This document shows, one piece after another, positions 4,030 through 47,702 of a stretch of 64,000 nt of DNA. The position numbers were made by a program, and so were the translations under genes. A model generated the notes under the pieces. That model had not been told where the DNA came from. It saw nothing but the letters and a program-made list of their open reading frames with translations, and ran no database searches. The DNA comes from a virus, in UHGV virus genome UHGV-2113617; one strand, written 5' to 3'. How positions within the stretch are numbered: the stretch's first letter is position 1; each line of letters begins with the position of its first letter.

Positions 4030-4968
4030 TTATTTAAATTGTTCAGTAACGTCTTCAACTACTTCGTATTGGCAGGTACGCATTTTAGCATCGTTGTAAT
4101 CAATCGGAATTGATACTACATCACGCGGATGCACTTTAACTTTTACAACTCGACTGGTTGAACTGCCAAAGTGACGAATATAAGATTTAGAACACACATG
4201 CAGACCACGAGAACAAGTTTGTGTATCATCGTCATTCACACGAGTACGTGGCATTTTAACTACTTTACCAGGGCTGTTATCAAAAGTATTTGAATGACAG
4301 TCAAAGTAATTGCTGCGAACTACTTTCCAAGCATAGAAGTAGCCGTCTTCTGTAATTTCAATATCGTTTGCTACCAAGAAATCAAAGAGTCGAGATACTG
4401 CTTTTTGGCTTGGGTTTTCCAGCAGATTTTCCAGGAATGGAAAATAAAATTCAAAGTTTTCACCTTTTTCCATCGAATCGAGAATACGATCAACTAAACC
4501 AGACCGCAATTCAATATTTTGATAGAACAGGCTTCCACCTTCAATTCGAACATCGCCGGAAATATATTTTTCAACAGCGCGACGAACATTAATTTTTTGT
4601 GCCGCTTCTTCCAATTTATCTGCAACAAGCAGATTAAGAATTTCCTGGAAGTTTGAATGAGTATTAGGAGTTGCGTTATAAGTTACGCCATCAACAGTAA
4701 TTGAAATGAATTTTTTAGATGCATTCCAAATAATGTCAGATTTAGCAACTGGAGCAATAACTGCATCACTCTTAACTTCAACTGTAATGTCACCGCTAAT
4801 GGTAACTTTGGAGCGCTCAGCTTCTTCAGCATTTTTCAAAACACGACGGATGGTATCAACCGATACACCTTGCCAATCAGCCAATTCCTGCTGAGTATAA
4901 TTACCACTTGAATACAGTTTGACAATTTCAGCTTGTTCGTTTTTGGTCAGGCATTTAATATTGTACAT
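4030..4968 (-). CDS. rIIB: rIIB membrane-associated protein
   Basis: 312 aa as T4 rIIB; ATG 4966-4968; N-term MYNIKCLTKNEQAEIVKLYSSGNYTQQELADWQG; adjacent to rIIA. Confidence 0.9.
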   Translation of the reverse strand: MYNIKCLTKNEQAEIVKLYSSGNYTQQELADWQGVSVDTIRRVLKNAEEAERSKVTISGDITVEVKSDAVIAPVAKSDIIWNASKKFISITVDGVTYNATPNTHSNFQEILNLLVADKLEEAAQKINVRRAVEKYISGDVRIEGGSLFYQNIELRSGLVDRILDSMEKGENFEFYFPFLENLLENPSQKAVSRLFDFLVANDIEITEDGYFYAWKVVRSNYFDCHSNTFDNSPGKVVKMPRTRVNDDDTQTCSRGLHVCSKSYIRHFGSSTSRVVKVKVHPRDVVSIPIDYNDAKMRTCQYEVVEDVTEQFK

Positions 4969-4979
4969 AATTTTCCTTA

Positions 4980-7157
4980 TTAGGCCGCAAGGGCCTTCAT
5001 AGTTTTAGCGATTTGGGAAACTTCATCATCACTTAAAGAATTGCGATAACCGATGAAGTCGGAAACAATACGGAATTTCTTGGTAAACTCAGCAACCATT
5101 TTATCACTGTTTTTTGAAGCATTATTTGATAATACATCAAAAAGATTAGTTACTGTCCAGATGTCATGACCGATGGTATCTTTTCCACCGTTGAAATATA
5201 CACCCTGTAATGAACTAACCATATTAGCGAGTCGTGTATATTCTTCAGAAACTTCATCTACACTGAAGTACTTCATCATAAAATCTAACTCAGGATACTT
5301 GATAATTTTATCAATATATCGTTTAGCTGAACTTGAATAACCTACATACTTATCATAATCTACATCATCAAAAGCATCTACATATAAATCACGCAAAGTT
5401 TCAAAAATACATTGGCACTGACCAAGTTCTTTTACCTTTTTCTGCAAAAGCGGACGAATAACATAAAATTCATTAATGCCAATAAGATTAGCCATACGAA
5501 TCAAAATATTCGTAGATGGATGACAAAGCGATGTAGTACCATCCATAGAGAAAATATCAGAACGATGCATGTATGCTACATAACCAGTAATTTCATCTGC
5601 TTCTGATGTGAGCGTAAACAATTCCTCTTTTTCCCAACGCCCGTCTTTAATTTCAAACTTAAATGCAGTGGCAGTTTTAGGACGAGGAGCTGTACTTTTT
5701 ACTGCCTTTGGAATATAACTTTTAACTAAAGCTTCAATTTCTGACAAATAATGAATGTTAACTTCATCACTTTCAAACATTGCCATAATATCAGGGAGTA
5801 AATCAATCTGTGATTCTACTTCCGGATTAATAAACAGAAGACGCTCATTGTGATGAATATTTAAGGTGTTATTAAATTCGCTATCATCTAATGCACGTGC
5901 TAATCCACGGACAATATTAACACGATTTTTAATATTATCAATAACAATATTAATTTTTGTCGTATTAATACCAAACAGACGATAACTTGATGCAACGGCT
6001 GAAGTTTCATGGCTTTGCTTAATGCGTTTCAGTCGAGGGTCAAGATTTACTTCATACACAACCCCTGCATTGCATAACTTACTGTCAGGTTCAAACATGC
6101 TCTGCATCTTCTTATATGACAGATTTTTAGTCGTGAATTTGACCGAATTACTAATCATATAATCTCGAGCAGAATATCCCATCTTCATCAATTCACGGTA
6201 TGTATGACGAGGAGATGTAGATTCTTTAAATCGTTTTACATCTTCATTAAATGCCTTCTCACTAAGCTCTTTAACACGCTCAATAATATTTTTACGAGTA
6301 CGATCATCTAGTGAAAGAGCTTCGCGTGATGGAGCAATATCAAGTGAACCCATTGGAAACTTAATGTAATTCACTTCATTGCGGATGCTTAACCAGTTAC
6401 GCTCTCTAATAACACCGTCAATAGGATAAACAATACCACCATAGATAGCGTACAATCCACCACGATCGGGCCAGTATCTTTCTGGATTTACGCCGTAATA
6501 GTCATCAAAATCAGGAAAATAATCAATTTCACGGTCAAGACCATTAATGATAGCCAAATCTTTGAATGGTCGCATGATATAAGAAACTTCATAAGCAAAG
6601 TTTCTAAAGTCTTTTTCTTCAACTGGAACTACGATTTCAATACCAGTTTTATCGTTTGGACCCATTTCTTTTACGAATGTAGGTTTAATCTGCGGACCGT
6701 CACCATCCATGTAAGCTACATAACCACGAATTTCACCTTTATGATATGAAGTAATACTAAATGTATCAGTATAACTAAACGGAGATTTAGAACCTAAACC
6801 AAATCCACCAATGAAATCGTTAGATTCAGCCTTAGATGAACTAAAGTATGAATTATACAACCCAGGAGAATTATCATCACCCTGAATATCAAAATCACTC
6901 ATACCTGGACCAAAATCTCGGCAAACAAATCGCGGATCTAATCGTCCTGGAACTTGTATGATAAATTTTTCAGGATTTCCATTAAGAGCATGGGCATCAA
7001 TCATGTTGGTAATCAATTCACGGACTACTGCGCGAATCTTGTTTGTATACAAATCAGATGACAGAATTTTAAATACTTTAGGAGATGCTGTGATGCTAAA
7101 TGCCTTTGATTTAGAACCGTTACCAAGAATAGTTTCTTTTTCAGTGGTGATAATCAT
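4980..7157 (-). CDS. rIIA: rIIA protein (GHKL ATPase-like N-terminal domain)
   Basis: 725 aa as T4 rIIA; ATG 7155-7157; N-term [29 protein letters not shown]. Confidence 0.9.
4982..4996 (-). other. hairpin at rIIA 3' end
   Basis: AGGCCGCAAGGGCCT. Confidence 0.4.
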
Positions 7158-20237: not shown

Positions 20238-20756
20238 TTAATAACCTCGGTCTTGACGAGCGAAGTTTTCAGCATTTTTTAGATAATAAAGTTTAAAGAT
20301 TTCTTCAGCCGTAAGACCGAGACCTTGGAACATGTTCAGAACGAAATGAAGAATATCAATCATTTCGAATTTAATTTCCAACTGGTCTTGCAGAGACAAA
20401 TCAGTAATTAGAGTTTCACGACGTTCACCATGCTGCGACTTCCAAGGCTTCCATACAGCAGATGCATCTTTTTCACCATTGCTCATACCACCAAGAGAAG
20501 TCAGAAGTTCGCGGAATTCATCATCAATATAATCTTTCTGATTACGCAACCAATCAACAACTTCACCTGCAGTAGCCAAATCATCAGGATGACGGTTATA
20601 TTCAGGTTTATCTTTAGCTAAACGAACCTGCAGAGATTTCTGCATGTCAAGCATAACTTGCAACGGGTCTTTTTCATCACCGAGAATATCCCAGTATTCA
20701 TTTTGAGCTTTATCAGCGCCTTCAATCAGTTGACTACATTCGTTGAAATGTGGCAT
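20238..20756 (-). CDS. 56: dCTP pyrophosphatase (dCTPase-dUTPase)
   Basis: 172 aa; ATG 20754-20756; MotA-box middle promoter upstream. Confidence 0.8.
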   Translation of the reverse strand: MPHFNECSQLIEGADKAQNEYWDILGDEKDPLQVMLDMQKSLQVRLAKDKPEYNRHPDDLATAGEVVDWLRNQKDYIDDEFRELLTSLGGMSNGEKDASAVWKPWKSQHGERRETLITDLSLQDQLEIKFEMIDILHFVLNMFQGLGLTAEEIFKLYYLKNAENFARQDRGY

Positions 20757-24526: not shown

Positions 24527-24871
24527 TTAAAAGAATTTAAATTTTTTCTTTGACCTTTTATTAAATGCATCGTGTAGTTGCATTGTAATACATTTTTCTA
24601 CATGAGGAGCTAACTCAGCTTTTCTTTCTTGGTCAAGAACAGCAAAGTCCATTACGACTTTTCCATCAACCCAATCTAATTTTGTCACATACACAATGTG
24701 TGTAGAACCATCTTCTAGTTTAATGACAATCTCCTGGATAACATTTTCCATGGCAGATTTAATTATCTTAAGAGATTCATTAAAAAGACGTTCTTTTCTT
24801 TCTTCTTCCCCCTCCGAAGAGGGGGATTCGTCGATAATTTCTAGATCTAAATCTAAATCATCTTTATTCAT
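24527..24871 (-). CDS. 40: head vertex assembly chaperone gp40
   Basis: 114 aa from ATG 24869-24871 (track gives 120 aa from GTG); start choice uncertain. Confidence 0.55.
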   Translation of the reverse strand: MNKDDLDLDLEIIDESPSSEGEEERKERLFNESLKIIKSAMENVIQEIVIKLEDGSTHIVYVTKLDWVDGKVVMDFAVLDQERKAELAPHVEKCITMQLHDAFNKRSKKKFKFF

Positions 24872-26045
24872 TAAATTCTTCCATATCACTTAACTGATCT
24901 AGGTCAGTTTCTAAATCAGCTGCTGATTTACTTTTACTTTCTGGAGATTTAAATTTTTCAACCTTTGAGTTAATCAATTCATCAACTTCAGCTTCAACAA
25001 TTTCATTACTATCAATAGCACCTAATTGATAAGCACGTTTAATAGCATCTCGGAATGGCTGATGCTTAAATAAAGGACCCCAGAATGTAGTGCAATTGGT
25101 ATCTTTTGCACGCCAAGATTTTTCTTCGCGAATCATCTCGCCGGTTTCTTCATCAAGAAATTCACGAGCATACCAGCCATTTTTAGGTTTTACTACAAAT
25201 CCTAATTCAAGAGCCATGTCTAACAATCCAGAATAAGGATCGATACCACCGTCAAATTTAACATCAATAAAGAATTTACTTTTTTCTTTGACGGTACGAG
25301 ATTTTTCTACATTTAGAACAAATTGATACCCCTGAAGATCAGAACCATCTTTAATCTGACGCTTACCGATAATGAATACAGTATCAGCCGAATACATTAC
25401 GCCTGTACCACCTGTCATCACGGTTTTACTAAACATTTCAATTGTTTCAATTGTATGGTTAACCGCAACACATGGAATGTTTTTAATACTAAAATAAGGA
25501 GTAACAATACGGAATAATGACTTCAGTGATTTAGCACGAGTCATATCTGCCACAGATTTTTCATTCAAGGCATCTTCCGTTTCTTTCTTAGAAGCCATAT
25601 TACCGATTGAGTCGATGAATACAATAACTTTTTCACCGCGCTCAATAGCTTCAAGCTGATTCACCATATCAATTTTCAGTTGTTCAACTGACTGAATTGG
25701 CGTATGAATTACTCGTTCCGGGTCAACTCCCATGGATCGCAAATAAGCTGGAGTAATACCAAATTCGCTATCATAGAATAAACAAACCGCATCAGGATAT
25801 TTGTTCAAATACGCCGCAACCATAGTCAAAGACATATTTGATTTAAAGTGTTTAGAAGGACCTGCAAAAATGGTTAAACCAGACTGCATTCCACCATCAA
25901 TCGCACCGGAAATAGCAATATTAAGCATTGGAATTTTTGTACGGATTACATCCTTTTCATTAAAGAACTTAGATGTAGTCAGTTCAGCAGTCATTTTAGA
26001 AGTGGAAGCTTTAATCAAACGGGATTTTAAATCTGCAATAGACAT
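24864..26045 (-). CDS. uvsX: UvsX recombinase (RecA-like)
   Basis: 393 aa; ATG 26043-26045; N-term MSIADLKSRLIKASTSKMTAELTTSKFFNEK. Confidence 0.9.
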   Translation of the reverse strand: MSIADLKSRLIKASTSKMTAELTTSKFFNEKDVIRTKIPMLNIAISGAIDGGMQSGLTIFAGPSKHFKSNMSLTMVAAYLNKYPDAVCLFYDSEFGITPAYLRSMGVDPERVIHTPIQSVEQLKIDMVNQLEAIERGEKVIVFIDSIGNMASKKETEDALNEKSVADMTRAKSLKSLFRIVTPYFSIKNIPCVAVNHTIETIEMFSKTVMTGGTGVMYSADTVFIIGKRQIKDGSDLQGYQFVLNVEKSRTVKEKSKFFIDVKFDGGIDPYSGLLDMALELGFVVKPKNGWYAREFLDEETGEMIREEKSWRAKDTNCTTFWGPLFKHQPFRDAIKRAYQLGAIDSNEIVEAEVDELINSKVEKFKSPESKSKSAADLETDLDQLSDMEEFNE

Positions 26046-26122
26046 TCATTTTTTCCATAGGCATCATTATATTTTCCTCACTGGTTAAAGATAGGGTAAT
26101 TATAACACAATAAATTTAGGCA

Positions 26123-26968
26123 TTAATCAACTGCTATTGGATGAATAGCATTAAACTTATGAAACGCTTCTGATTTTTCTTTGCGCGAAACACACATGCG
26201 AAGAACCTTTAATGGCTCGTCTTCTTCACCCAACGATTTTCTCTTTTCAATATTCGATGTTTTCCAACGAGCTTGCTCTGGAAACTCTCTATTGATTTGC
26301 TCAAGCGCTCTATTATGTTTTGAATTACTACGAATTGAACTACATCCGCCTGGAGCTTGTGCTTTTCCAGATACAACCAGATATTTGAACAAGGCCAAAT
26401 GCGGATAACCTTGATTAATTAAATTGAGAAATGCATACATATCTTCGCATAAATCAATTTTTCCATACCCAATTTGTTCTGTTGTAAGTTTTCCTAAATC
26501 ATACCATGTATTCGTGAATCCATATGAATTTTCACGATAATTACCCCAAGATGAAGTAATTTTAAAAATTGGTAAACGGGCATGACCATGATAATACCCG
26601 CAATCCATGGCATCTTCAACGTATTGAATCAATTCATAGAACTGTTCACGAGTTAACTGATTAATTTTATCTACGCAGCGACGATCATCTTTCTTTCGCA
26701 TTGAACTCATACGAATAGTAGTATCATCGATCATCCAAATTCGTTGACCTGCATACATATCAGTAATTGCTTTACGAGTTCCAGCAATTCCATTTACATC
26801 ATCAGGAATAACTACAATTTTAGCTCTAGACCCATAAGCATCATAATAAGCTTTTTCTTCGTGTTCACGTACTACAATATGAGGTTCATAATCAGTCGGA
26901 AACATATCAAGGGCAGAAACTGCCCCTACGCGTTGATAGCTTGGAATTACGAATTGAATCATTTCCAC
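26123..26968 (-). CDS. putative glycosyltransferase at the beta-gt locus (possibly a T2/T6-type beta-alpha-glucosyltransferase)
   Basis: 281 aa; shorter than and unlike T4 beta-gt (351 aa) as recalled; contains IDDTT (DxD-like) motif; between uvsX and 42. Confidence 0.45.
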   Translation of the reverse strand: MEMIQFVIPSYQRVGAVSALDMFPTDYEPHIVVREHEEKAYYDAYGSRAKIVVIPDDVNGIAGTRKAITDMYAGQRIWMIDDTTIRMSSMRKKDDRRCVDKINQLTREQFYELIQYVEDAMDCGYYHGHARLPIFKITSSWGNYRENSYGFTNTWYDLGKLTTEQIGYGKIDLCEDMYAFLNLINQGYPHLALFKYLVVSGKAQAPGGCSSIRSNSKHNRALEQINREFPEQARWKTSNIEKRKSLGEEDEPLKVLRMCVSRKEKSEAFHKFNAIHPIAVD

Positions 26969-27699
26969 TCACCGTTATAATCTTTTTTCGCAATATGAGT
27001 TTCGCCAGTTTTCCACCAATGGTCAACCAAATAAAAATGACGAGAATACACATGAAGGCTTCCGACATTCCATATAATGGAACCTGCTTTATACTGACGA
27101 GTTGAATCACCTGCATTCAAATCAGATACTAATTTATCTAGTACGTATTTTTGCCATGCATAATCATTACGGAATCCGAAGACCACGTCATTTGAACGCA
27201 TGCTTACTACTGCATTGACTTTCTTATCACGAATCAGGTACTGTACTGTATTCGTACACATGAAATCTGACATACCATCTTTGTTGTAGTCAAACTGCAT
27301 GGATGGACGAGTATAAATCATGATACCACGTCGAGAATCAGGATTTTGACCAAGTTCAGCTAAACACATATCATACTGAGCATAGTTATCTTCTGACCAG
27401 ATGGCCCAACCATAATTTGAGTTAATTTCACCTTTAGAAGATGCCACCTGCTGCCAAATCTTTGGCGTTTCACCTGGAATATCTTTAACAAACAAACTTT
27501 TAGATTTATACCATTCAAGTTCACGCTGAATGTATTCATCATTAAGAGCGCCAAAAATAAAAGGTTCATCTGCTACAAATGATGCACCAATAATTTCAAT
27601 AGTTTTAACACCGGTTTTATCAATTACGAAATCTTTTTCCTTTAATGCAATTCCCAAATGAAGACGGATTTCTTCAACTGTCATAGAGTCATTAATCAT
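26959..27699 (-). CDS. 42: dCMP hydroxymethylase
   Basis: 246 aa as T4 gp42; ATG 27697-27699; N-term MINDSMTVEEIRLHLG. Confidence 0.9.
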   Translation of the reverse strand: MINDSMTVEEIRLHLGIALKEKDFVIDKTGVKTIEIIGASFVADEPFIFGALNDEYIQRELEWYKSKSLFVKDIPGETPKIWQQVASSKGEINSNYGWAIWSEDNYAQYDMCLAELGQNPDSRRGIMIYTRPSMQFDYNKDGMSDFMCTNTVQYLIRDKKVNAVVSMRSNDVVFGFRNDYAWQKYVLDKLVSDLNAGDSTRQYKAGSIIWNVGSLHVYSRHFYLVDHWWKTGETHIAKKDYNGEWK

Positions 27700-27852
27700 T
27701 TAAACCTCAATTGATGCATTCATATTTAACTTGTAACAGTAATAAACTCCACCCTATAATAAGTGTTGGAATCATACAAGGAACTGTTACGCTATAGTAT
27801 ATACTTATTATAATCATCAAGATTAAAAGCAATACTGCTAAAATTTTGCTTT

Positions 27853-28104
27853 TCATTCCTTCTCTCTGATGATAATTACTTGATTTTGCTGTACAGATTT
27901 TTTAGTTTCACCCGCAATTGACCAAATAAATGTAATAAACCAACCAATGATTGACCAGTTAAACAGTAAAGATGTGAAAAAGATTCCTACTGTCGATTTT
28001 GACCCACGCATCAAGGCGATGAACCATGGAAGCATGTATATAATAATAGCCAACACGCCTGAAACTAAAACCATAAAAATTGAACCTGCTACTAAAGTTT
28101 CCAT
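27853..28104 (-). CDS. imm: immunity (superinfection exclusion) membrane protein Imm
   Basis: 83 aa; two TM helices; ATG 28102-28104. Confidence 0.8.
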   Translation of the reverse strand: METLVAGSIFMVLVSGVLAIIIYMLPWFIALMRGSKSTVGIFFTSLLFNWSIIGWFITFIWSIAGETKKSVQQNQVIIIREKE

Positions 28105-28111
28105 ATTTTCC

Positions 28112-28492
28112 TCACTTAGTCAAATTTTTTACGCATGAATTATAAGAATTCACTACATACTCCATCGGAGCATTTTTACCTGTACGCCATTGGTAATTAT
28201 TAGCCCAATTAGCCCAAAGCTCAGCGCAGTAGTTTTCAATTTTTTCTTCGCGTGTAATTACATCTGAATTACGATATGCTTGAGCAGATTCATCTGGGCG
28301 AATAGCTTCGTCAAAATTCGCCTGCATCTGTTCTACTGTCTGTTTTGGAGCTTCTTTATAACACTTGACGTTAGGATTATAAAATTTGCTTGAACAGTTT
28401 ACAATTTTTCCTACATCAGACTGATTTACTACCGGTCCTTGAGCTACACATCCAGTAAGACCCAATGCAATAACCAAAATAGCGATTTTCAT
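28112..28492 (-). CDS. putative lipoprotein (imm.1 position)
   Basis: 126 aa; MKIAILVIALGLTGC lipobox. Confidence 0.55.
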   Translation of the reverse strand: MKIAILVIALGLTGCVAQGPVVNQSDVGKIVNCSSKFYNPNVKCYKEAPKQTVEQMQANFDEAIRPDESAQAYRNSDVITREEKIENYCAELWANWANNYQWRTGKNAPMEYVVNSYNSCVKNLTK

Positions 28493-28502
28493 AATAATTT
28501 CC

Positions 28503-28760
28503 TCAAATACAAGTAGTAATTACTCCAGTAGTGCTTACACAGGTATTACCTAATTGAACACCCAACGTTCCATTAGTATTCATATGAAGATTATCATCAA
28601 TTTTTGTTGATACTTTACCATTCATGTGAATAATAGTATTAGATTCAATCACATTCTGAGTGTCATTTTCAATATCAATAAATGGAACAGTTGCTAATGC
28701 AACTAAACACGCTGCTAATGCAACTAAACACACTGCTAAACAACCATAAACAATTTTCAT
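28503..28760 (-). CDS. secreted or membrane small protein (85 aa)
   Basis: ATG 28758-28760 after GGAGAATAAA; signal region contains the tandem 7-aa repeat CLVALAA/CLVALAT. Confidence 0.5.
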   Translation of the reverse strand: MKIVYGCLAVCLVALAACLVALATVPFIDIENDTQNVIESNTIIHMNGKVSTKIDDNLHMNTNGTLGVQLGNTCVSTTGVITTCI

Positions 28761-28790
28761 TTTATTCTCCAAATCCGTATCAGTTGATAG

Positions 28791-31717: not shown

Positions 31718-31939
31718 TTAAATTAATACCATTTGTCGGTGAAAAATTGTCAATCCATCTGCATTAATTGACTTAACCACTGCGGTAAAGTGTTTTTGTT
31801 CTGGGTGAACTAATTTTTGAAATTCTACCTGAAATTTTAGTTGGAGATTTTCTGGTAAATCAAAAAGTGTTTCTGTTGCAGAAAGATTATATTTTTCTTT
31901 AAGAGACGCCATGTATTCTTGCGGGGTTATAGCAGTCAT
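31718..31939 (-). CDS. hypothetical protein (73 aa) between regA and gene 43
   Basis: ATG overlaps regA stop (TAATATG); MTAITPQEYMASLKEKYNLSATETLF. Confidence 0.4.
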   Translation of the reverse strand: MTAITPQEYMASLKEKYNLSATETLFDLPENLQLKFQVEFQKLVHPEQKHFTAVVKSINADGLTIFHRQMVLI

Positions 31940-31940
31940 A

Positions 31941-32309
31941 TTAATTACCAATCGTATATTTTGGAACGAGTTTCCATTCATGTTTTTGTTTAAAAGAAAT
32001 AACTCGGAAGTTATTGGTTAAATCTTTCATAAAAGTTCTTTGACCAGGAACGATTTCAATCAGCCCCCAATCTTCTAACAGCCATGCAATCGAATCACGA
32101 CGAACTTCATCTTCTTCTGTCATTTCAACCTGGCGACCATCCATACGAAGCATTTCTTTAAAATGAACGATATAGTATAGTCCTTTTTTCTGAAGAATAT
32201 GACAGGACTGATACAGAACTTTATCTTTATTATTAGCAATTCCCATGCGAGTCAAAGTTTCTTTTACTTTCAGAAAATCTTCAGGTTTTTTAAGAGTAAT
32301 TTCAATCAT
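31941..32309 (-). CDS. regA: translational repressor RegA
   Basis: 122 aa as T4 RegA; ATG 32307-32309. Confidence 0.85.
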   Translation of the reverse strand: MIEITLKKPEDFLKVKETLTRMGIANNKDKVLYQSCHILQKKGLYYIVHFKEMLRMDGRQVEMTEEDEVRRDSIAWLLEDWGLIEIVPGQRTFMKDLTNNFRVISFKQKHEWKLVPKYTIGN

Positions 32310-32875: not shown

Positions 32876-33835
32876 TCACTTCCACTGCATTTCGCATGCT
32901 AATTGAATGAAAAGATATGCTAAATGTAATTCCGTATTAGCCGCAATTCCATGATACTGGTTATTTTCACCAACAATTTCATACATACGAATAATACTTT
33001 GCGGAGTTACACGTGTATAGATTTCTTCGGCAAGTTTACCAACGAACCACGAATAATCAGCTGCATATTTTGGTGCTAAAGCTCTGAGCTGTTTAACATC
33101 TTTATTTTTGAGAGACTCAAGAACATCATCAATAGCACCACGATCGTTAGTAACCAGTGATAAAATACCAGCATCCAAAACACCTTTAGATGAATAACTA
33201 TCGAGCTCACCAATAGTTTTACGAAAATCAGGAAAATTCTTTTTAACCAAAGCTGCTACAACTTTCATATCAGCTATAGCAATTCCTTCATGCTTACAGA
33301 TTTCAGTCAATCGACGAATCATCTGCTTCATCATTTCAATTTTATCTTCATCGGTCGGTTGACCGAACGTAATAACTCGGCAGCGTGACTGAAGCGGTTT
33401 AATAATACCATCAATATTGTTAGCAGTAATAATAATACTACAGTTTGAACTATAAGCTTCCATAAAGGAACGAAGATGTCGCTGAGACTCTGCTAACCCT
33501 GAACGGTCAAATTCATCAATAACAATTACTTTTTGACGACCATCAAATGAAGCTGCACTAGCAAAATTAGTCAAAGGACCACGAACGAAATCAATTTTAC
33601 AATCTGACCCATTCACAAACATCATATCAGCATTTACATCATGACACAATGCTTTTGCTACAGTTGTTTTACCTGTTCCTGGAGAAGGAGAATGAAGAAT
33701 AATATGTGGAATCTTACCTTTACTTGTAATAGATTTAAAGGTTTCTTTATCAAAGGCGGGAAGAATACATTCATCGATAGTAGATGGACGATATTTCTGT
33801 TCAAGAATGTGTTCTTTTTCATTTACAGTAATCAT
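32876..33835 (-). CDS. 44: clamp loader large subunit (AAA+)
   Basis: 319 aa from ATG 33833-33835 with GAGGA SD (track start at 33850 is TTG); Walker A GTGKTT. Confidence 0.9.
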
Positions 33836-33870
33836 AATTTCCTCATTCAAGTTTTAGTGTAAATTATAAA

Positions 33871-33882
33871 GGGCCGAAGCCC
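33871..33882 (-). other. UUCG-tetraloop hairpin between genes 45 and 44
   Basis: GGGCCGAAGCCC. Confidence 0.45.
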
Positions 33883-33886
33883 TCTA

Positions 33887-34573
33887 TTAAAAATCGTGGG
33901 TAGAATCAGCTTCAAGAGCTACTACATAATTCGCATGTTCACCTTCAAATTTAGCAGCGCCTTGTTTACCTTTTGCCCAGAGAAGAAGTTTATAATTTCC
34001 TGGTTGCATTTTCATATTTGCCATATTGATAATGAAATTAAATGTATTTTCACCATCATAATCACCAAGAGTCAAAGAATATTTAACACGGGTCAAAGCA
34101 GAATCTTCTACTTTGTTAAAACCGTTAATTACAATTTTACCTTCTTTTACTGTGATAGCAATTGTATCAATCTGCAGACCGCGAGATACACGCAACAGCT
34201 GTTGAAGGTCTTCAGCTTTAATTTCAGTAACAACAGATGCTACCGGGAATGGAATTGGTTTATTAGGAGCAACTACTGTACTCGGATCGGCTGCTGGCCA
34301 AAAAATTGTTGAACGGGCATCAGCAATTTTAATATTTCCATCTTCTGACTGGGAAATTTCTGCATCGTCATTAACTAGAGACAGAATACCGAGAAAACCG
34401 TTCAAATCGTAAATCGCTACATCAAAATCAATAGTGTCAGAAATATTTGCTTCTGCATAAGTTGTACCATTAACCGCGCGAGTCATAATAAATTGACCGG
34501 ATTTAAGCATAATACCGGAGTTAATAGTAGCGAAATTTTTAAGCAGAGCAGTAGTATCTTTAGACAGTTTCAT
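33887..34573 (-). CDS. 45: sliding clamp
   Basis: 228 aa as T4 gp45; ATG 34571-34573. Confidence 0.9.
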   Translation of the reverse strand: MKLSKDTTALLKNFATINSGIMLKSGQFIMTRAVNGTTYAEANISDTIDFDVAIYDLNGFLGILSLVNDDAEISQSEDGNIKIADARSTIFWPAADPSTVVAPNKPIPFPVASVVTEIKAEDLQQLLRVSRGLQIDTIAITVKEGKIVINGFNKVEDSALTRVKYSLTLGDYDGENTFNFIINMANMKMQPGNYKLLLWAKGKQGAAKFEGEHANYVVALEADSTHDF

Positions 34574-38577: not shown

Positions 38578-38593
38578 AAGGGCCGAAGCCCTT
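38578..38593 (-). other. UUCG-tetraloop hairpin after a-gt
   Basis: AAAGGGCCGAAGCCCTTT. Confidence 0.45.
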
Positions 38594-39795
38594 TATTTTG
38601 TAATAATGTCAAACTGTTCTTTAAAGCAGAAGCTTGAATCTTGATGCTGATACAAAAATTCATAAGCTTTTTCGCGTTCACGGTCATAAAGAGCTCGGTC
38701 AGATGACAGTTCTTTAATACGTTCAAATGTTGATTCCATGTCGTTTTCATCAAACCAAACGATACCGCTATCATGTGAAATTAATGGAGTGTTATCAACA
38801 CGGAATTTTAAATTTTCGCCAGTAGATTTCCAAAATACCGGAATTGTTCCACATGCACCAAGCTCGAGATGAGTGTATTCTAAAGAACGCTGTAGATATT
38901 TTTTGTCCAACTTACTCAACTGATAACCAAATCCGGATTTACTCATGCGTTCAAGCATTTCGCTATTTACATAACGGTCGAGAATTTGCGTCGGCAAATT
39001 AGGAGCAATTTTAATTTGGTCTACTTGATGAAGACGATAATACTCGTATGGAATTCCTTTTTCTTTAATAGGAATGAACGCTGGAGAACGTTCCAGACCT
39101 TCCATAATAGTACTTAGTCCTGCAGGTTTAAGATGTTTTTCGTGAAAATCAAACATCTGATAAAAGCCTTTCCATGTAGTAGTACGACCAATCCAACGGT
39201 TGATATTCATGTTAATTTCAGAAACATCTTTCCAGTAAGTTGATCGAACCTTCGCAATATCCATAGGAGGCTGAAAGTTATATACGGTCGGTGCTTCTTC
39301 AATATCATCAAACAGAGAAACAGTTTCCGGATACCATTCTTTCATTAAAACTTTATTAAAATCACCATTATCAGAATGGCTAAAAATAACATCAGCTCGA
39401 CGAACAGTTTCTTCTAATCCCAAATTTCGGCGTAAAGAAAGAGAAGAATGGTCATGCTGATAAACTACAACACGAACCGAAGGTTTAATGTTATCAATAA
39501 TTTTTTTATAGTTATTAATGGTGTCTTCTTCGACTGAAGTAGCAGGAACTGAATTGATAACTAGAATATCACAATCATTTACCAGCTTAAGCGTTTTATC
39601 GTATTCTTTTGCCAATAAAACTGGAATTGAAAATGACTTATAATCATGCGCGCAATTACGAGTAAATGATTTATCTTTAGCATAAACCAAAGTTACTTCA
39701 TGGCCATTTTTAGTAAACCAATCACGCTGCTCAAGAGAAAATTTAGTTACACCACAACCTTCAAGACCTCGAGCCATAAAAATGCATACTTTCAT
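38593..39795 (-). CDS. a-gt: DNA alpha-glucosyltransferase
   Basis: 400 aa as T4 a-gt; N-term MKVCIFMARGLEGCGVTKFSLEQRDWF. Confidence 0.85.
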   Translation of the reverse strand: MKVCIFMARGLEGCGVTKFSLEQRDWFTKNGHEVTLVYAKDKSFTRNCAHDYKSFSIPVLLAKEYDKTLKLVNDCDILVINSVPATSVEEDTINNYKKIIDNIKPSVRVVVYQHDHSSLSLRRNLGLEETVRRADVIFSHSDNGDFNKVLMKEWYPETVSLFDDIEEAPTVYNFQPPMDIAKVRSTYWKDVSEINMNINRWIGRTTTWKGFYQMFDFHEKHLKPAGLSTIMEGLERSPAFIPIKEKGIPYEYYRLHQVDQIKIAPNLPTQILDRYVNSEMLERMSKSGFGYQLSKLDKKYLQRSLEYTHLELGACGTIPVFWKSTGENLKFRVDNTPLISHDSGIVWFDENDMESTFERIKELSSDRALYDREREKAYEFLYQHQDSSFCFKEQFDIITK

Positions 39796-39819
39796 TTAAT
39801 ATCCTCATTGTTTTGGTTT

Positions 39820-39844
39820 ATTTTACCAAAAATTTATAAAGCAA
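39820..39844 (-). promoter_or_regulatory. middle promoter (MotA box) upstream of a-gt
   Basis: TTGCTTTA, 11-nt spacer, TAAAAT. Confidence 0.45.
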
Positions 39845-39861
39845 TATAGGAGCCTCGGCTC

Positions 39862-40035
39862 CTATCCGCATAATACGCCATACAGAGGCTCATTAGAGCT
39901 TCTAAATTTTATGCGCTTATATGTTATAGTTCCTTCTGCTTTAGCTTTATCGTGAGCCTCTTTAAAGCGTCTCATCATTTCTACTTTAGAGGAACGAATT
40001 TTGTTATAATCTATTTCAGAAGTCTGGGTGTTCAT
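39862..40035 (-). CDS. hypothetical small protein (57 aa)
   Basis: Manual translation MNTQTSEIDYNKIRSSKVEMMRRFKEAHDK; stop overlaps hairpin GGAGCCTCGGCTCC. Confidence 0.3.
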   Translation of the reverse strand: MNTQTSEIDYNKIRSSKVEMMRRFKEAHDKAKAEGTITYKRIKFRSSNEPLYGVLCG

Positions 40036-40038
40036 CTT

Positions 40039-40245
40039 TCACAGTTGCCACCATTTTTTGACTTGATAAGAATCAACCCACACTTTCATATTAGGGTCTG
40101 CTCTTACAATAGGAGGATTAACTTCTTTAATTGAACTATCATGGTATTCTTTTTCAGAAATTTTCACACAAAGATGACCGTTCAAAGATTCAGTAAATCC
40201 TGCATTAATTTTAAGACGCTTGAATTTTACGTGTGTAAGCATCAA
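40039..40245 (-). CDS. hypothetical protein
   Basis: ORF track 68 aa. Confidence 0.45.
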   Translation of the reverse strand: MMLTHVKFKRLKINAGFTESLNGHLCVKISEKEYHDSSIKEVNPPIVRADPNMKVWVDSYQVKKWWQL

Positions 40246-41369: not shown

Positions 41370-41639
41370 TTATCTAAGTAAACAGTATGCTTGGAACACT
41401 TTCTCCATCATCTTTTTAAATTCATGAATATCTATATAATGATCATTAATATCAGCACGATATAAAAAGTCTAAAAACTTTTTATGGGTGTTAGAATATT
41501 TACTTTCATTTAATTCAGAAACATGGCTTTCCCAATATCCAACACCAGTCTTATTTGGGAAAAATGAAATTTTCATGTATTGGTCAACATAGAAAATACC
41601 AAAATTTTCAATAGCAATAGAAATATTAATAAATTTCAT
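41370..41639 (-). CDS. hypothetical protein
   Basis: ORF track 89 aa. Confidence 0.45.
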   Translation of the reverse strand: MKFINISIAIENFGIFYVDQYMKISFFPNKTGVGYWESHVSELNESKYSNTHKKFLDFLYRADINDHYIDIHEFKKMMEKVFQAYCLLR

Positions 41640-44309: not shown

Positions 44310-46123
44310 TGGTGTTTAACCCTATGCATGATTTCTTTATTTTTGCCAAGATTAAATCCGCGTTCGTTCGGATTTCCCAAATAACCACAAGTTCTTCTTA
44401 TTGTGTTCATCTTTTTAGGATCAGTTTCTCCACAAATAGAACAAACAAATCCGTTTTCAGTAGGAGTCATTTCATGGGTACTTCCACATGTAAAACATTT
44501 ATCTACTGGCATATTAACACCAAAATAATCTAAATGTTGTGCAGCATAATCCCATACAGCCTCAAGACCTTTTAGGTTATTTTTCATATCAGGAAGTTCA
44601 ACATAAGAAATGTGACCACCTGTCGCAATGAAATGATATGGGGCTTCGCGAGAAATCTTTTCAAACGGAGTAATATTTTCTTCTACTGAAACGTGGAAAC
44701 TGTTAGTGTACCAGCCTTTATCGGTAACATCTTTTACACTTCCATATTTTTCGGTATCAAGTTTACAGAAGCGATAGCACAGGTTTTCTGCAGGAGTAGA
44801 ATACAAACTAAAAGCAAATCCGGTTCTTTCAGTCCATTGTTTAAGATGAGTATTCATTTTAGTTAAAATTTCTTGTCCAATATCACGACCGACAAGAATA
44901 TTCAATTCGTGAATACCAATGTATCCTAGAGACACTGAACTTCTACCGTTTTTAAATAACTCAATTATATCGTCATCAGGTTTAAGACGAACCCCGAATG
45001 CACCTTCTTGGTAAAGAATAGGAGCAACAGTAGCTTTAACTCCTTTTAAGGAACTAATTCTACACATCAATGCTTCAAAACATAAATCCATTCGTTCGTT
45101 GAACAATTCGGCAAATTTCTGTTCATTGAACTGTGTTCCAATATAAGAATCTAACGCAATACGAGGAAGATTCAGTGTTACAACACCAAGATTATTACGT
45201 CCATCAAGAATTTCATTACCAGTCGAATCTTTCCATACGCCCAAGAAACTACGACAACCCATTGGAGAAACAGGAATAGATGAACCAGTGATAGCTTTAT
45301 TGTTCTTAGCCGAAATGATGTCAGGATACATTCTTTTACTTGCACACTCTAGAGCAAGCTGTTTAATATCATAGTTCGGATCGTCTTTATAAAGATTAAC
45401 ACCTTCTTCAACGAACATAACAAGTTTAGGGAAAATAGGAGTTATCCCATCACGACCGAGACCTTTAATACGATTTTTCAGAATTGCTTTCTGAATCATT
45501 CGTTCAGTCCAGTCAGTTCCCGTACCAAATGTAATTGTTACAAAAGGCGTCTGTCCGTTTGAACTAAAGAGAGTATTTACTTCATATTCATAAGCTTGGA
45601 ACGCATCGTATACGTCTTTTTCTGTTTTAGATTGGGCATAATTCAATGCATCTGCGATTTGCCATTTTTCCGCGTCCTCAATATGTTTCGCATAGGTGCG
45701 TTTAACATAAGGAGAAAGTACTTTATCTACATTCGCAAAAGTCGTTCCGCCATATTGATGAGAAGCAACCTGTGCAGTAATTTGTGCCATAATTGCAGTA
45801 GCAACGCCGATTGATTTAGGGGTTTCAATCTGTGCATTACCGAGCTTAAATCCGTTCTCAAGCATTCCTTTTAAATCTACTAAACAACAATTAGTAAATG
45901 GAAGAGCAGGGGAATAATCAATATCGTGGAAATGGATAATTCCGCTTTCATGTGCTTTCATAATAAAAGACGGGACCATATTTTTGGCAATGTGTTTAGA
46001 CACAATACCAGCCATAAGGTCCCGTTGAGTTGGAAAAACACGAGAATCTTTATTAGCATTCTCGTTTAAAAGGTCTTTATTAGTTTTATGAATTAATCCT
46101 TCAATTTCTTTTTCAATTGTCAT
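44306..46123 (-). CDS. nrdD: anaerobic ribonucleoside-triphosphate reductase, intron-free
   Basis: 605 aa continuous ORF; C-terminal glycyl-radical motif RTCGYLG. Confidence 0.9.
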   Translation of the reverse strand: MTIEKEIEGLIHKTNKDLLNENANKDSRVFPTQRDLMAGIVSKHIAKNMVPSFIMKAHESGIIHFHDIDYSPALPFTNCCLVDLKGMLENGFKLGNAQIETPKSIGVATAIMAQITAQVASHQYGGTTFANVDKVLSPYVKRTYAKHIEDAEKWQIADALNYAQSKTEKDVYDAFQAYEYEVNTLFSSNGQTPFVTITFGTGTDWTERMIQKAILKNRIKGLGRDGITPIFPKLVMFVEEGVNLYKDDPNYDIKQLALECASKRMYPDIISAKNNKAITGSSIPVSPMGCRSFLGVWKDSTGNEILDGRNNLGVVTLNLPRIALDSYIGTQFNEQKFAELFNERMDLCFEALMCRISSLKGVKATVAPILYQEGAFGVRLKPDDDIIELFKNGRSSVSLGYIGIHELNILVGRDIGQEILTKMNTHLKQWTERTGFAFSLYSTPAENLCYRFCKLDTEKYGSVKDVTDKGWYTNSFHVSVEENITPFEKISREAPYHFIATGGHISYVELPDMKNNLKGLEAVWDYAAQHLDYFGVNMPVDKCFTCGSTHEMTPTENGFVCSICGETDPKKMNTIRRTCGYLGNPNERGFNLGKNKEIMHRVKHQ

Positions 46124-47381: not shown

Positions 47382-47702
47382 TTATAGCGTAATCCATTCT
47401 CGTATTGTCTGAGTTACTACACGTTCACGGGGCTCGACTAGTTCAACAGTCGGAACTGCATAATACCAGTCAGAATGATAAGAACCTGAACGGCATTCAT
47501 TTACGGAAACATGTACATTATGTTTTGGACTAAAATAAACACACTGACGATATTGACATTTACCGTCTTGCACCCAGTCTTCTATTTCGACAGGTTTAAG
47601 ATAATCGGAAAAATCGAAATCATAGTTTTCTGAAAATGCATCATGGTCTTCAATGATTTCACTCAGAACTGCATCAACATCTAATTTATTTTCAATAGTC
47701 AT
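47382..47702 (-). CDS. hypothetical protein
   Basis: ORF track 106 aa. Confidence 0.5.
   Translation of the reverse strand: MTIENKLDVDAVLSEIIEDHDAFSENYDFDFSDYLKPVEIEDWVQDGKCQYRQCVYFSPKHNVHVSVNECRSGSYHSDWYYAVPTVELVEPRERVVTQTIREWITL

Follow-up and report, generated by a model that had tools for sequence, protein, structure and literature searches.

The locus between uvsX and gene 42

The DNA that was analysed is a stretch of 64 kb from a virus and is referred to below as the window. Between uvsX and gene 42, where T4 has the 351-aa b-gt, the window carries on the minus strand an ORF (26123..26968) that is given in the ORF list as 281 aa with a GTG start. The downstream flank is uvsX (24864..26045, minus strand), with 90% identity to T4 UvsX, and the upstream flank is gene 42 for dCMP hydroxymethylase (26959..27699, minus strand), with 96% identity to T4 gp42; gene 42 also matched thymidylate synthase family models, but weakly and below the cut-off. 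The preliminary description of this DNA had placed the ORF between these two genes and had called the alpha-gt conserved, and both statements are correct: the alpha-glucosyltransferase gene, a-gt, lies at 38593..39795 on the minus strand and its product is 91% identical to the T4 protein over 400 aa. The dCTPase gene, gene 56 (20238..20756, minus strand), was located by tblastn with T6 gp56 (71% identity, E=2e-81). Its flanking DNA is about 90-95% identical to T6, and gene 56 is best described as a putative mosaic patch in a gene of the hydroxymethylcytosine (hmC) pathway. Over its 64 kb the window runs collinear with T6, the identity being about 95%, and, judged from its sequence, it belongs to a wild T2/T6-like Tequatrovirus.

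The 281-aa ORF exists as described but the length of its product has most likely to be corrected to 279 aa. Two codons inside this ORF there is an ATG at 26962, and the annotated orthologs in T2, T6 (AP018814), HP3.1, and HP3.2 all start with MIQF, as does the protein read from 26962. This ATG is also part of an ATGA in which the stop codon of gene 42 overlaps the start (26959..26962, minus strand), and the sequence GGTGAG precedes it. Because of the shared MIQF start and the ATG within this ATGA, the true start is most likely at 26962 and the coding sequence, which we call ba-gt (βα-gt, g-gt, and TAGT are other names in use), would run from there to the stop codon TAA at 26123-26125 (26123..26962, minus strand). 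The overlap suggests that gene 42 and ba-gt are translationally coupled. In the T6 record MH550421 ba-gt is annotated from a later start because codon 10 is an amber codon. That the ORF is not a chance one is shown by its match to PHROG 842 and by tblastn, in which 686 of 690 matching phage records cover at least 80% of it. Other small ORFs in 26123-26980, antisense or overlapping, had no support and were treated as spurious.

A scan for promoters and terminators from 25900 to 28300 gave counts equal to the shuffled expectation. The sole terminator-like match in this region, a GC-rich hairpin of 9 bp with a T-rich stretch after it (26908-26928, minus strand), is at chance expectation, lies within codons 12-18 of ba-gt, and may just reflect the coding sequence.

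Several neighboring features were recorded along with the locus. Imm and gene 42 are separated by a "gap" of 153 nt, which is filled by a hydrophobic ORF of 49 aa (MKSKILAVLLLILMIIISIYY..., 27707-27856, minus strand) whose ATG overlaps the imm stop codon as ATGA. It is intact in T2, T6, T4, and HP3.2 at 88-92% identity with conservative substitutions, and there are many stops in the other frames. This ORF is unannotated in NC_000866, AP018813, AP018814, MH550421, and OP978391 and has been called in an ENA scaffold; it probably codes for a real small membrane protein adjoining the superinfection-immunity gene. The homing-endonuclease genes of T4 or T6 (segA, mobB, and segH) are absent at the junctions at 26046-26122, about 36940, 39800-40200, and 44310-44370 of the window, and so is T6ORF054. 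Small ORFs of 87-106 aa at 31718-31981, 28503-28772, 41370-41639, and 47382-47702, all on the minus strand, are mostly in segments that have no T6 counterpart and look like typical T-even variable genes; for the 89-aa ORF after imm.1 a similarly placed ORF was found in T2.

Identity of the enzyme encoded by ba-gt

The ba-gt protein is 98% identical to the same-locus protein of T2 (AP018813) and 97% identical to that of T6 (AP018814), and in both phages the gene has the same place between gene 42 and uvsX. It matched PHROG 842, "beta-glucosyl-HMC-alpha-glucosyltransferase", with E=6.6e-86 and the Pfam family TAGT (PF20691) with E=1.6e-9 and 38.5 bits against a cut-off of 27.5, the latter match being full-length (residues 3-206 against model positions 2-205). 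The preliminary description had proposed a T2/T6-type beta-alpha-glucosyltransferase and a comparison with the T2 and T6 enzymes, and the near-identity found in that comparison bears the proposal out. About 470 phage records, nearly all of Tequatrovirus, have the gene at 95% protein identity or more, and about 200 more records from Klebsiella, Enterobacter, Salmonella, and Citrobacter phages have it at 60-80%. Even the exact 279-aa protein is already public in an ENA metagenome scaffold (167,620 bp) and in Logan ERR1190852, and the ba-gt DNA in these assemblies is identical to that of the window. Since the gene, its place, its function, and the exact protein are all public, these have to be regarded as already known.

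A search of the PDB by sequence gave no match to ba-gt at E<=1, and no NCBIfam model matches ba-gt or a-gt. The AlphaFold model of ba-gt (pLDDT 88.7) is a single domain with a predicted GT-A fold, and its best PDB neighbors by Foldseek are the inverting GT2 GT-A enzymes RmlT, TarS, TarP, and K4CP. In every feature that was tested for membership in the T2/T6 βα-gt family the window protein agrees with the family, except for the three-residue acidic turn that is dealt with below. Taking identity and mechanism jointly, we are nearly certain that ba-gt is orthologous to the gene for the beta-glucosyl-HMC-alpha-glucosyltransferase of T2 and T6. The best explanation overall, which we hold with high confidence, is that it codes for a GT-A-fold, GT2-like TAGT enzyme of the T2/T6 βα-gt type that would make gentiobiosyl-hmC and that this copy lacks one Asp.

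Two other identities were weighed against this one. As ba-gt occupies the genomic position of T4 b-gt, it could be a diverged beta-glucosyltransferase of the T4 type with a GT-B fold, and homology to the T4 enzyme had been named beforehand as the finding that would overturn the proposal. No such homology was seen: the best BLASTP match to T4 b-gt had E=3.4, tblastn with T4 b-gt, segA, and mobB gave no matches in the 64-kb window, and the predicted fold is GT-A and not GT-B. This candidate was rejected, and we consider it next to impossible. The preliminary description had also left room for another DNA sugar transferase, that is, an enzyme for some other sugar or linkage that merely sits at the beta-gt locus, such as an arabinosyltransferase of the RB69/Mosigvirus type. 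The TAGT family is indeed broad and many of its members occur without alpha-gt or beta-gt (PMC13216743), which means that specificity differs across the family. However, the window has an alpha-gt gene, and in Tequatroviruses with the same two genes the DNA has gentiobiosyl-hmC but lacks arabinose (PMC13390438). Above all, the option falls because of the 97-98% identity to the T2/T6 enzyme, and we regard it as very improbable.

Comparison with related glycosyltransferases

With the T2/T6 βα-GT (ba-gt, g-gt, ggt) the window enzyme shares, besides 97-98% identity, the gene 42-uvsX locus, the ATGA coupling, and the alpha-gt partner. It differs in that one Asp of the DDD turn is missing whereas T2 and nearly all Tequatrovirus orthologs have three; T6 AP018814 shares this loss. 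It also keeps Arg11, while the T2 enzyme has His at this position. In the family, Arg11 is found in 145 of 149 sequences, including the window (codon at 26930-26932) and T6, and the T2 protein with His11 (4283-5125, minus strand, of the T2 segment) was found under four GenBank accessions. Gentiobiosyl-hmC makes up about 5% in T2 and about 72% in T6, and His11 could explain this low value in T2 compared to T6.

The positions that are most conserved in the TAGT family (PF20691; GT-A, sister to GT2) are shared by the window enzyme, namely, R11, R63, D79, D80, D174, G205, G206, and R211. TAGT stands for TET-associated glycosyltransferase; the connection of this name with TET-containing phages reportedly goes back to Iyer et al. 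(2013) and to Burke et al. (2021). The window enzyme, in contrast, is partnered with alpha-gt and the hmC pathway and not with a TET/JBP oxygenase. With T4 b-gt it has in common the chromosomal position, the UDP-glucose donor, the beta linkage, and the protection of hmC DNA, but sequence and fold are unrelated, T4 b-gt being GT-B, and the acceptor of the T4 enzyme is bare hmC rather than alpha-glucosyl-hmC. In addition, T4 has the homing endonuclease gene segA beside b-gt and there is none between uvsX and ba-gt in the window. The window ba-gt is an analogue of T4 b-gt by position only; T4 b-gt belongs to Pfam PF09198, and the two T4 enzymes are CAZy GT63/GT72 (PMC13216743). The wall teichoic acid GT2 enzymes TarS, TarP, and RmlT have the GT-A Rossmann-like core of the ba-gt model, and their strand beta-4 is likewise followed by an acidic motif; Foldseek gave E values of about 1e-5 to 1e-6 and a TM of about 0.5, and the identity is only 10-16%. 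They differ in that their acceptor is a polyol phosphate polymer and not DNA and in having extra oligomerisation domains.

One Asp codon is missing from the acidic motif

The IDDTT string pointed out in the preliminary description is present at residues 78-82 of ba-gt, in the context I-W-M-I-D-D-T. It is not simply a DxD-like motif, as had been thought, but the DDD motif of the family minus one Asp codon: where T2 has ATT GAC GAT GAT the window has ATC GAT GAT, with the two remaining Asp codons, GAT GAT for D79-D80, at 26723..26728 on the minus strand and one in-frame GAT missing. In the homologs from the first search four hydrophobic residues were followed by DDD in 12 out of 12. For a wider comparison the window protein was aligned with 148 full-length representatives of the family (<=50% mutual identity) from an exhaustive HMMER search. 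About 138 of the 148 representatives (about 93%) have DDD, one has EDD, and nine have DD followed by N, L, R, Q, or M. The length of the turn is constant in all 148; the window is the only one of the 149 sequences with a gap in the three-column motif, and the column missing from it is occupied in 148 of 149. By column, Asp stands at position 79 in all 149 sequences and at position 80 in 140 of them. The three-residue acidic turn of the βα-gt family is thus not found in the window protein, which apart from the deletion is identical to the protein of phage IME340.

Among 479 phage records with the gene, three codons are kept in 476, and the codon is absent by blastn in three, namely, AP018814, NC_054907 (the same T6 genome), and HP3.2. 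The DD pattern gave no matches in IMG/VR and JGI metagenome contigs, as against 5 and 4 for DDD. With a 40-mer that spans the deletion, megablast gave no match; SNPs in the other DD alleles break the 28-nt word. In the cited literature on these glucosyltransferases we found no mention of the Asp-deleted allele. The missing turn residue lowers confidence in normal activity of the enzyme but not in its ancestry.

Independent origins of the deletion

In HP3.2, a line with the label "in vitro directed evolution", ba-gt is distinguished from that of HP3.1 by the loss of 3 nt and nothing else. In the 50 kb around ba-gt the two differ further by a single SNP, an N, and a recombinant patch; the deletion is one of about three events. 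The patch, at 33399-33600 of HP3.2 against 33413-34034 of HP3.1 in the compared segments, has dense substitutions at the start of gene 46, and relative to HP3.1 about 430 nt covering 46.1 and 46.2 are missing from HP3.2. It looks like the result of recombination with another phage during the directed evolution.

The two T6 records, AP018814 and MH550421, differ in ba-gt by nothing but the 3-nt loss and C28T, a change that turns Q10 into the amber codon in MH550421. In the first 50 kb they differ at four loci and three of these are in glucosyltransferase genes: the Asp deletion in ba-gt (AP018814, 22733) and, in MH550421, the ba-gt Q10 amber and a-gt V320A (22952 and 35233). The V320A change is derived in MH550421.

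The window ba-gt allele differs from each of the other DD alleles by 45-52 nt, including SNPs beside the motif, and therefore the deletion in the window represents a third origin. The loss of the Asp codon has thus occurred independently in the window phage, in one T6 stock, and in HP3.2, that is, at least three times. It is conceivable, although we think it unlikely, that the (GAT)3 run is prone to slippage and that its recurrent contraction to (GAT)2 is selected as a reversible turn-down or retuning of the second glucosylation. If this were true, T-even phages could go from gentiobiosyl-rich to alpha-glucosyl-rich DNA and back in response to changing host defences.

Does the deleted allele retain activity?

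The predicted DDD and DD models do not differ in fold, the turn being shortened from residues 79-81 to 79-80. We lean slightly to the reading that the DD allele keeps useful activity, probably in attenuated form. Somewhat less probable, but to be taken seriously, is that the deletion makes a strong hypomorph or a null and that ba-gt is a recently disabled gene in this phage, in which case the DNA would have mainly alpha-glucosyl-hmC and about 25% bare hmC, as in T6 Δba-gt or T2. The motif is the metal/nucleotide-sugar site in GT-A enzymes. Since the spacing of the motif is constant in the 148 representatives and three codons are kept in 476 of 479 records, the deletion can be argued to carry a functional cost, and the complete lack of the DD pattern in IMG/VR and JGI metagenome contigs, where DDD was found 5 and 4 times, speaks for loss of function as well. 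The origin of the other copies fits this too. HP3.2 from in vitro directed evolution is distinguished from HP3.1 in ba-gt by the deletion alone, and three of the four differences between the T6 records are in glucosyltransferase genes, including the amber at codon 10 in MH550421; a deletion in cultured lines, namely, HP3.2 and one T6 stock, together with an amber in the sister stock is what one would expect if loss of the enzyme is tolerated or favoured in culture.

Against a null allele is, however, that the invariant D79 and the nearly invariant D80 are kept in register with strand beta-4, while the third position of the motif is not Asp in nine of the 148 representatives. In GT2 enzymes of the SpsA type it is the first and second acidic residues behind the strand that are used, and this would speak for retained activity. 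Selection for loss should also have produced varied lesions and not the same in-frame codon loss three times, and the window ORF is otherwise undamaged, being identical to the IME340 protein. Moreover, the T6 of AP018814 (RefSeq) carries the allele and T6 is the classic phage with 72% gentiobiosyl-hmC, a figure that is not tied to that particular stock. The texts of the Brig1 and Brig3 studies give no accession numbers for the T6 allele that was used.

The DNA-sugar pathway and implications

It is established T-even biochemistry that genes 42 and 56 give hmC DNA, which is then glucosylated by alpha-gt, about three quarters of the hmC being modified. In the window phage the product of gene 42 would supply the hmC precursor and that of gene 56 would remove dCTP, so that hydroxymethylcytosine is put into DNA in place of C. 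The alpha-gt enzyme would then attach glucose in alpha linkage to about three quarters of these bases and thereby create the acceptor for ba-gt, which would add a second glucose from UDP-glucose in beta-1,6 linkage to give gentiobiosyl-hmC. All three partner genes for the acceptor (alpha-gt and genes 42 and 56) were located in the 64-kb window. We infer the last step for the window enzyme from the genetics of T6 deletions and from the 97-98% identity.

The sugar on hmC determines which host defences see T-even DNA. Gentiobiosyl-hmC protects DNA against enzymes directed at alpha-glucosyl-hmC; examples are the glycosylase Brig1 and the glucosidase BapA, neither of which acts on the gentiobiosyl form. 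GmrSD/BrxU enzymes, on the other hand, cut DNA with either alpha-glucosyl-hmC or gentiobiosyl-hmC. In T6 Δba-gt the DNA becomes degradable by Brig1 and the phage is more Brig1-sensitive (PMC11078745), and BapA frees glucose from T6 Δg-gt DNA but not from wild-type T6 DNA (bioRxiv 10.64898/2026.02.25.707755). Ten new Tequatroviruses with alpha-gt and TAGT had alpha-5-gentiobiosylmethyl-dC by HPLC/MS and no beta-glucosyl form (PMC13390438). The contrast with T4 at this locus drawn in the preliminary description holds, but its framing has to be inverted: in a survey of 753 genomes the pairing of alpha-gt or beta-gt with TAGT was the rule and the alpha/beta pair of T4 a rarity present in 6 (PMC13216743). 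Therefore, the arrangement in the window is ordinary and that of T4 exceptional, alpha-gt with TAGT being the majority arrangement in T4-like phages.

The pair of alpha-gt and βα-gt predicts T6-like DNA for the window phage, or T2-like DNA if the allele is weak; further transferases may be encoded in the genome outside these 64 kb. Knowledge of this pair is of use in annotation and in the choice of phages for host-range work and brings no new biology. Further work could pay off only for the Asp-deleted allele, which is relevant to users of T6 or HP3-derived stocks and which sits in the T6 of AP018814 (RefSeq), the TAGT query for T6 in a recent survey. If the allele alters activity, the DNA sugars may vary among some of the T6 stocks that laboratories treat as "wild-type", and this could explain discordant results between laboratories.
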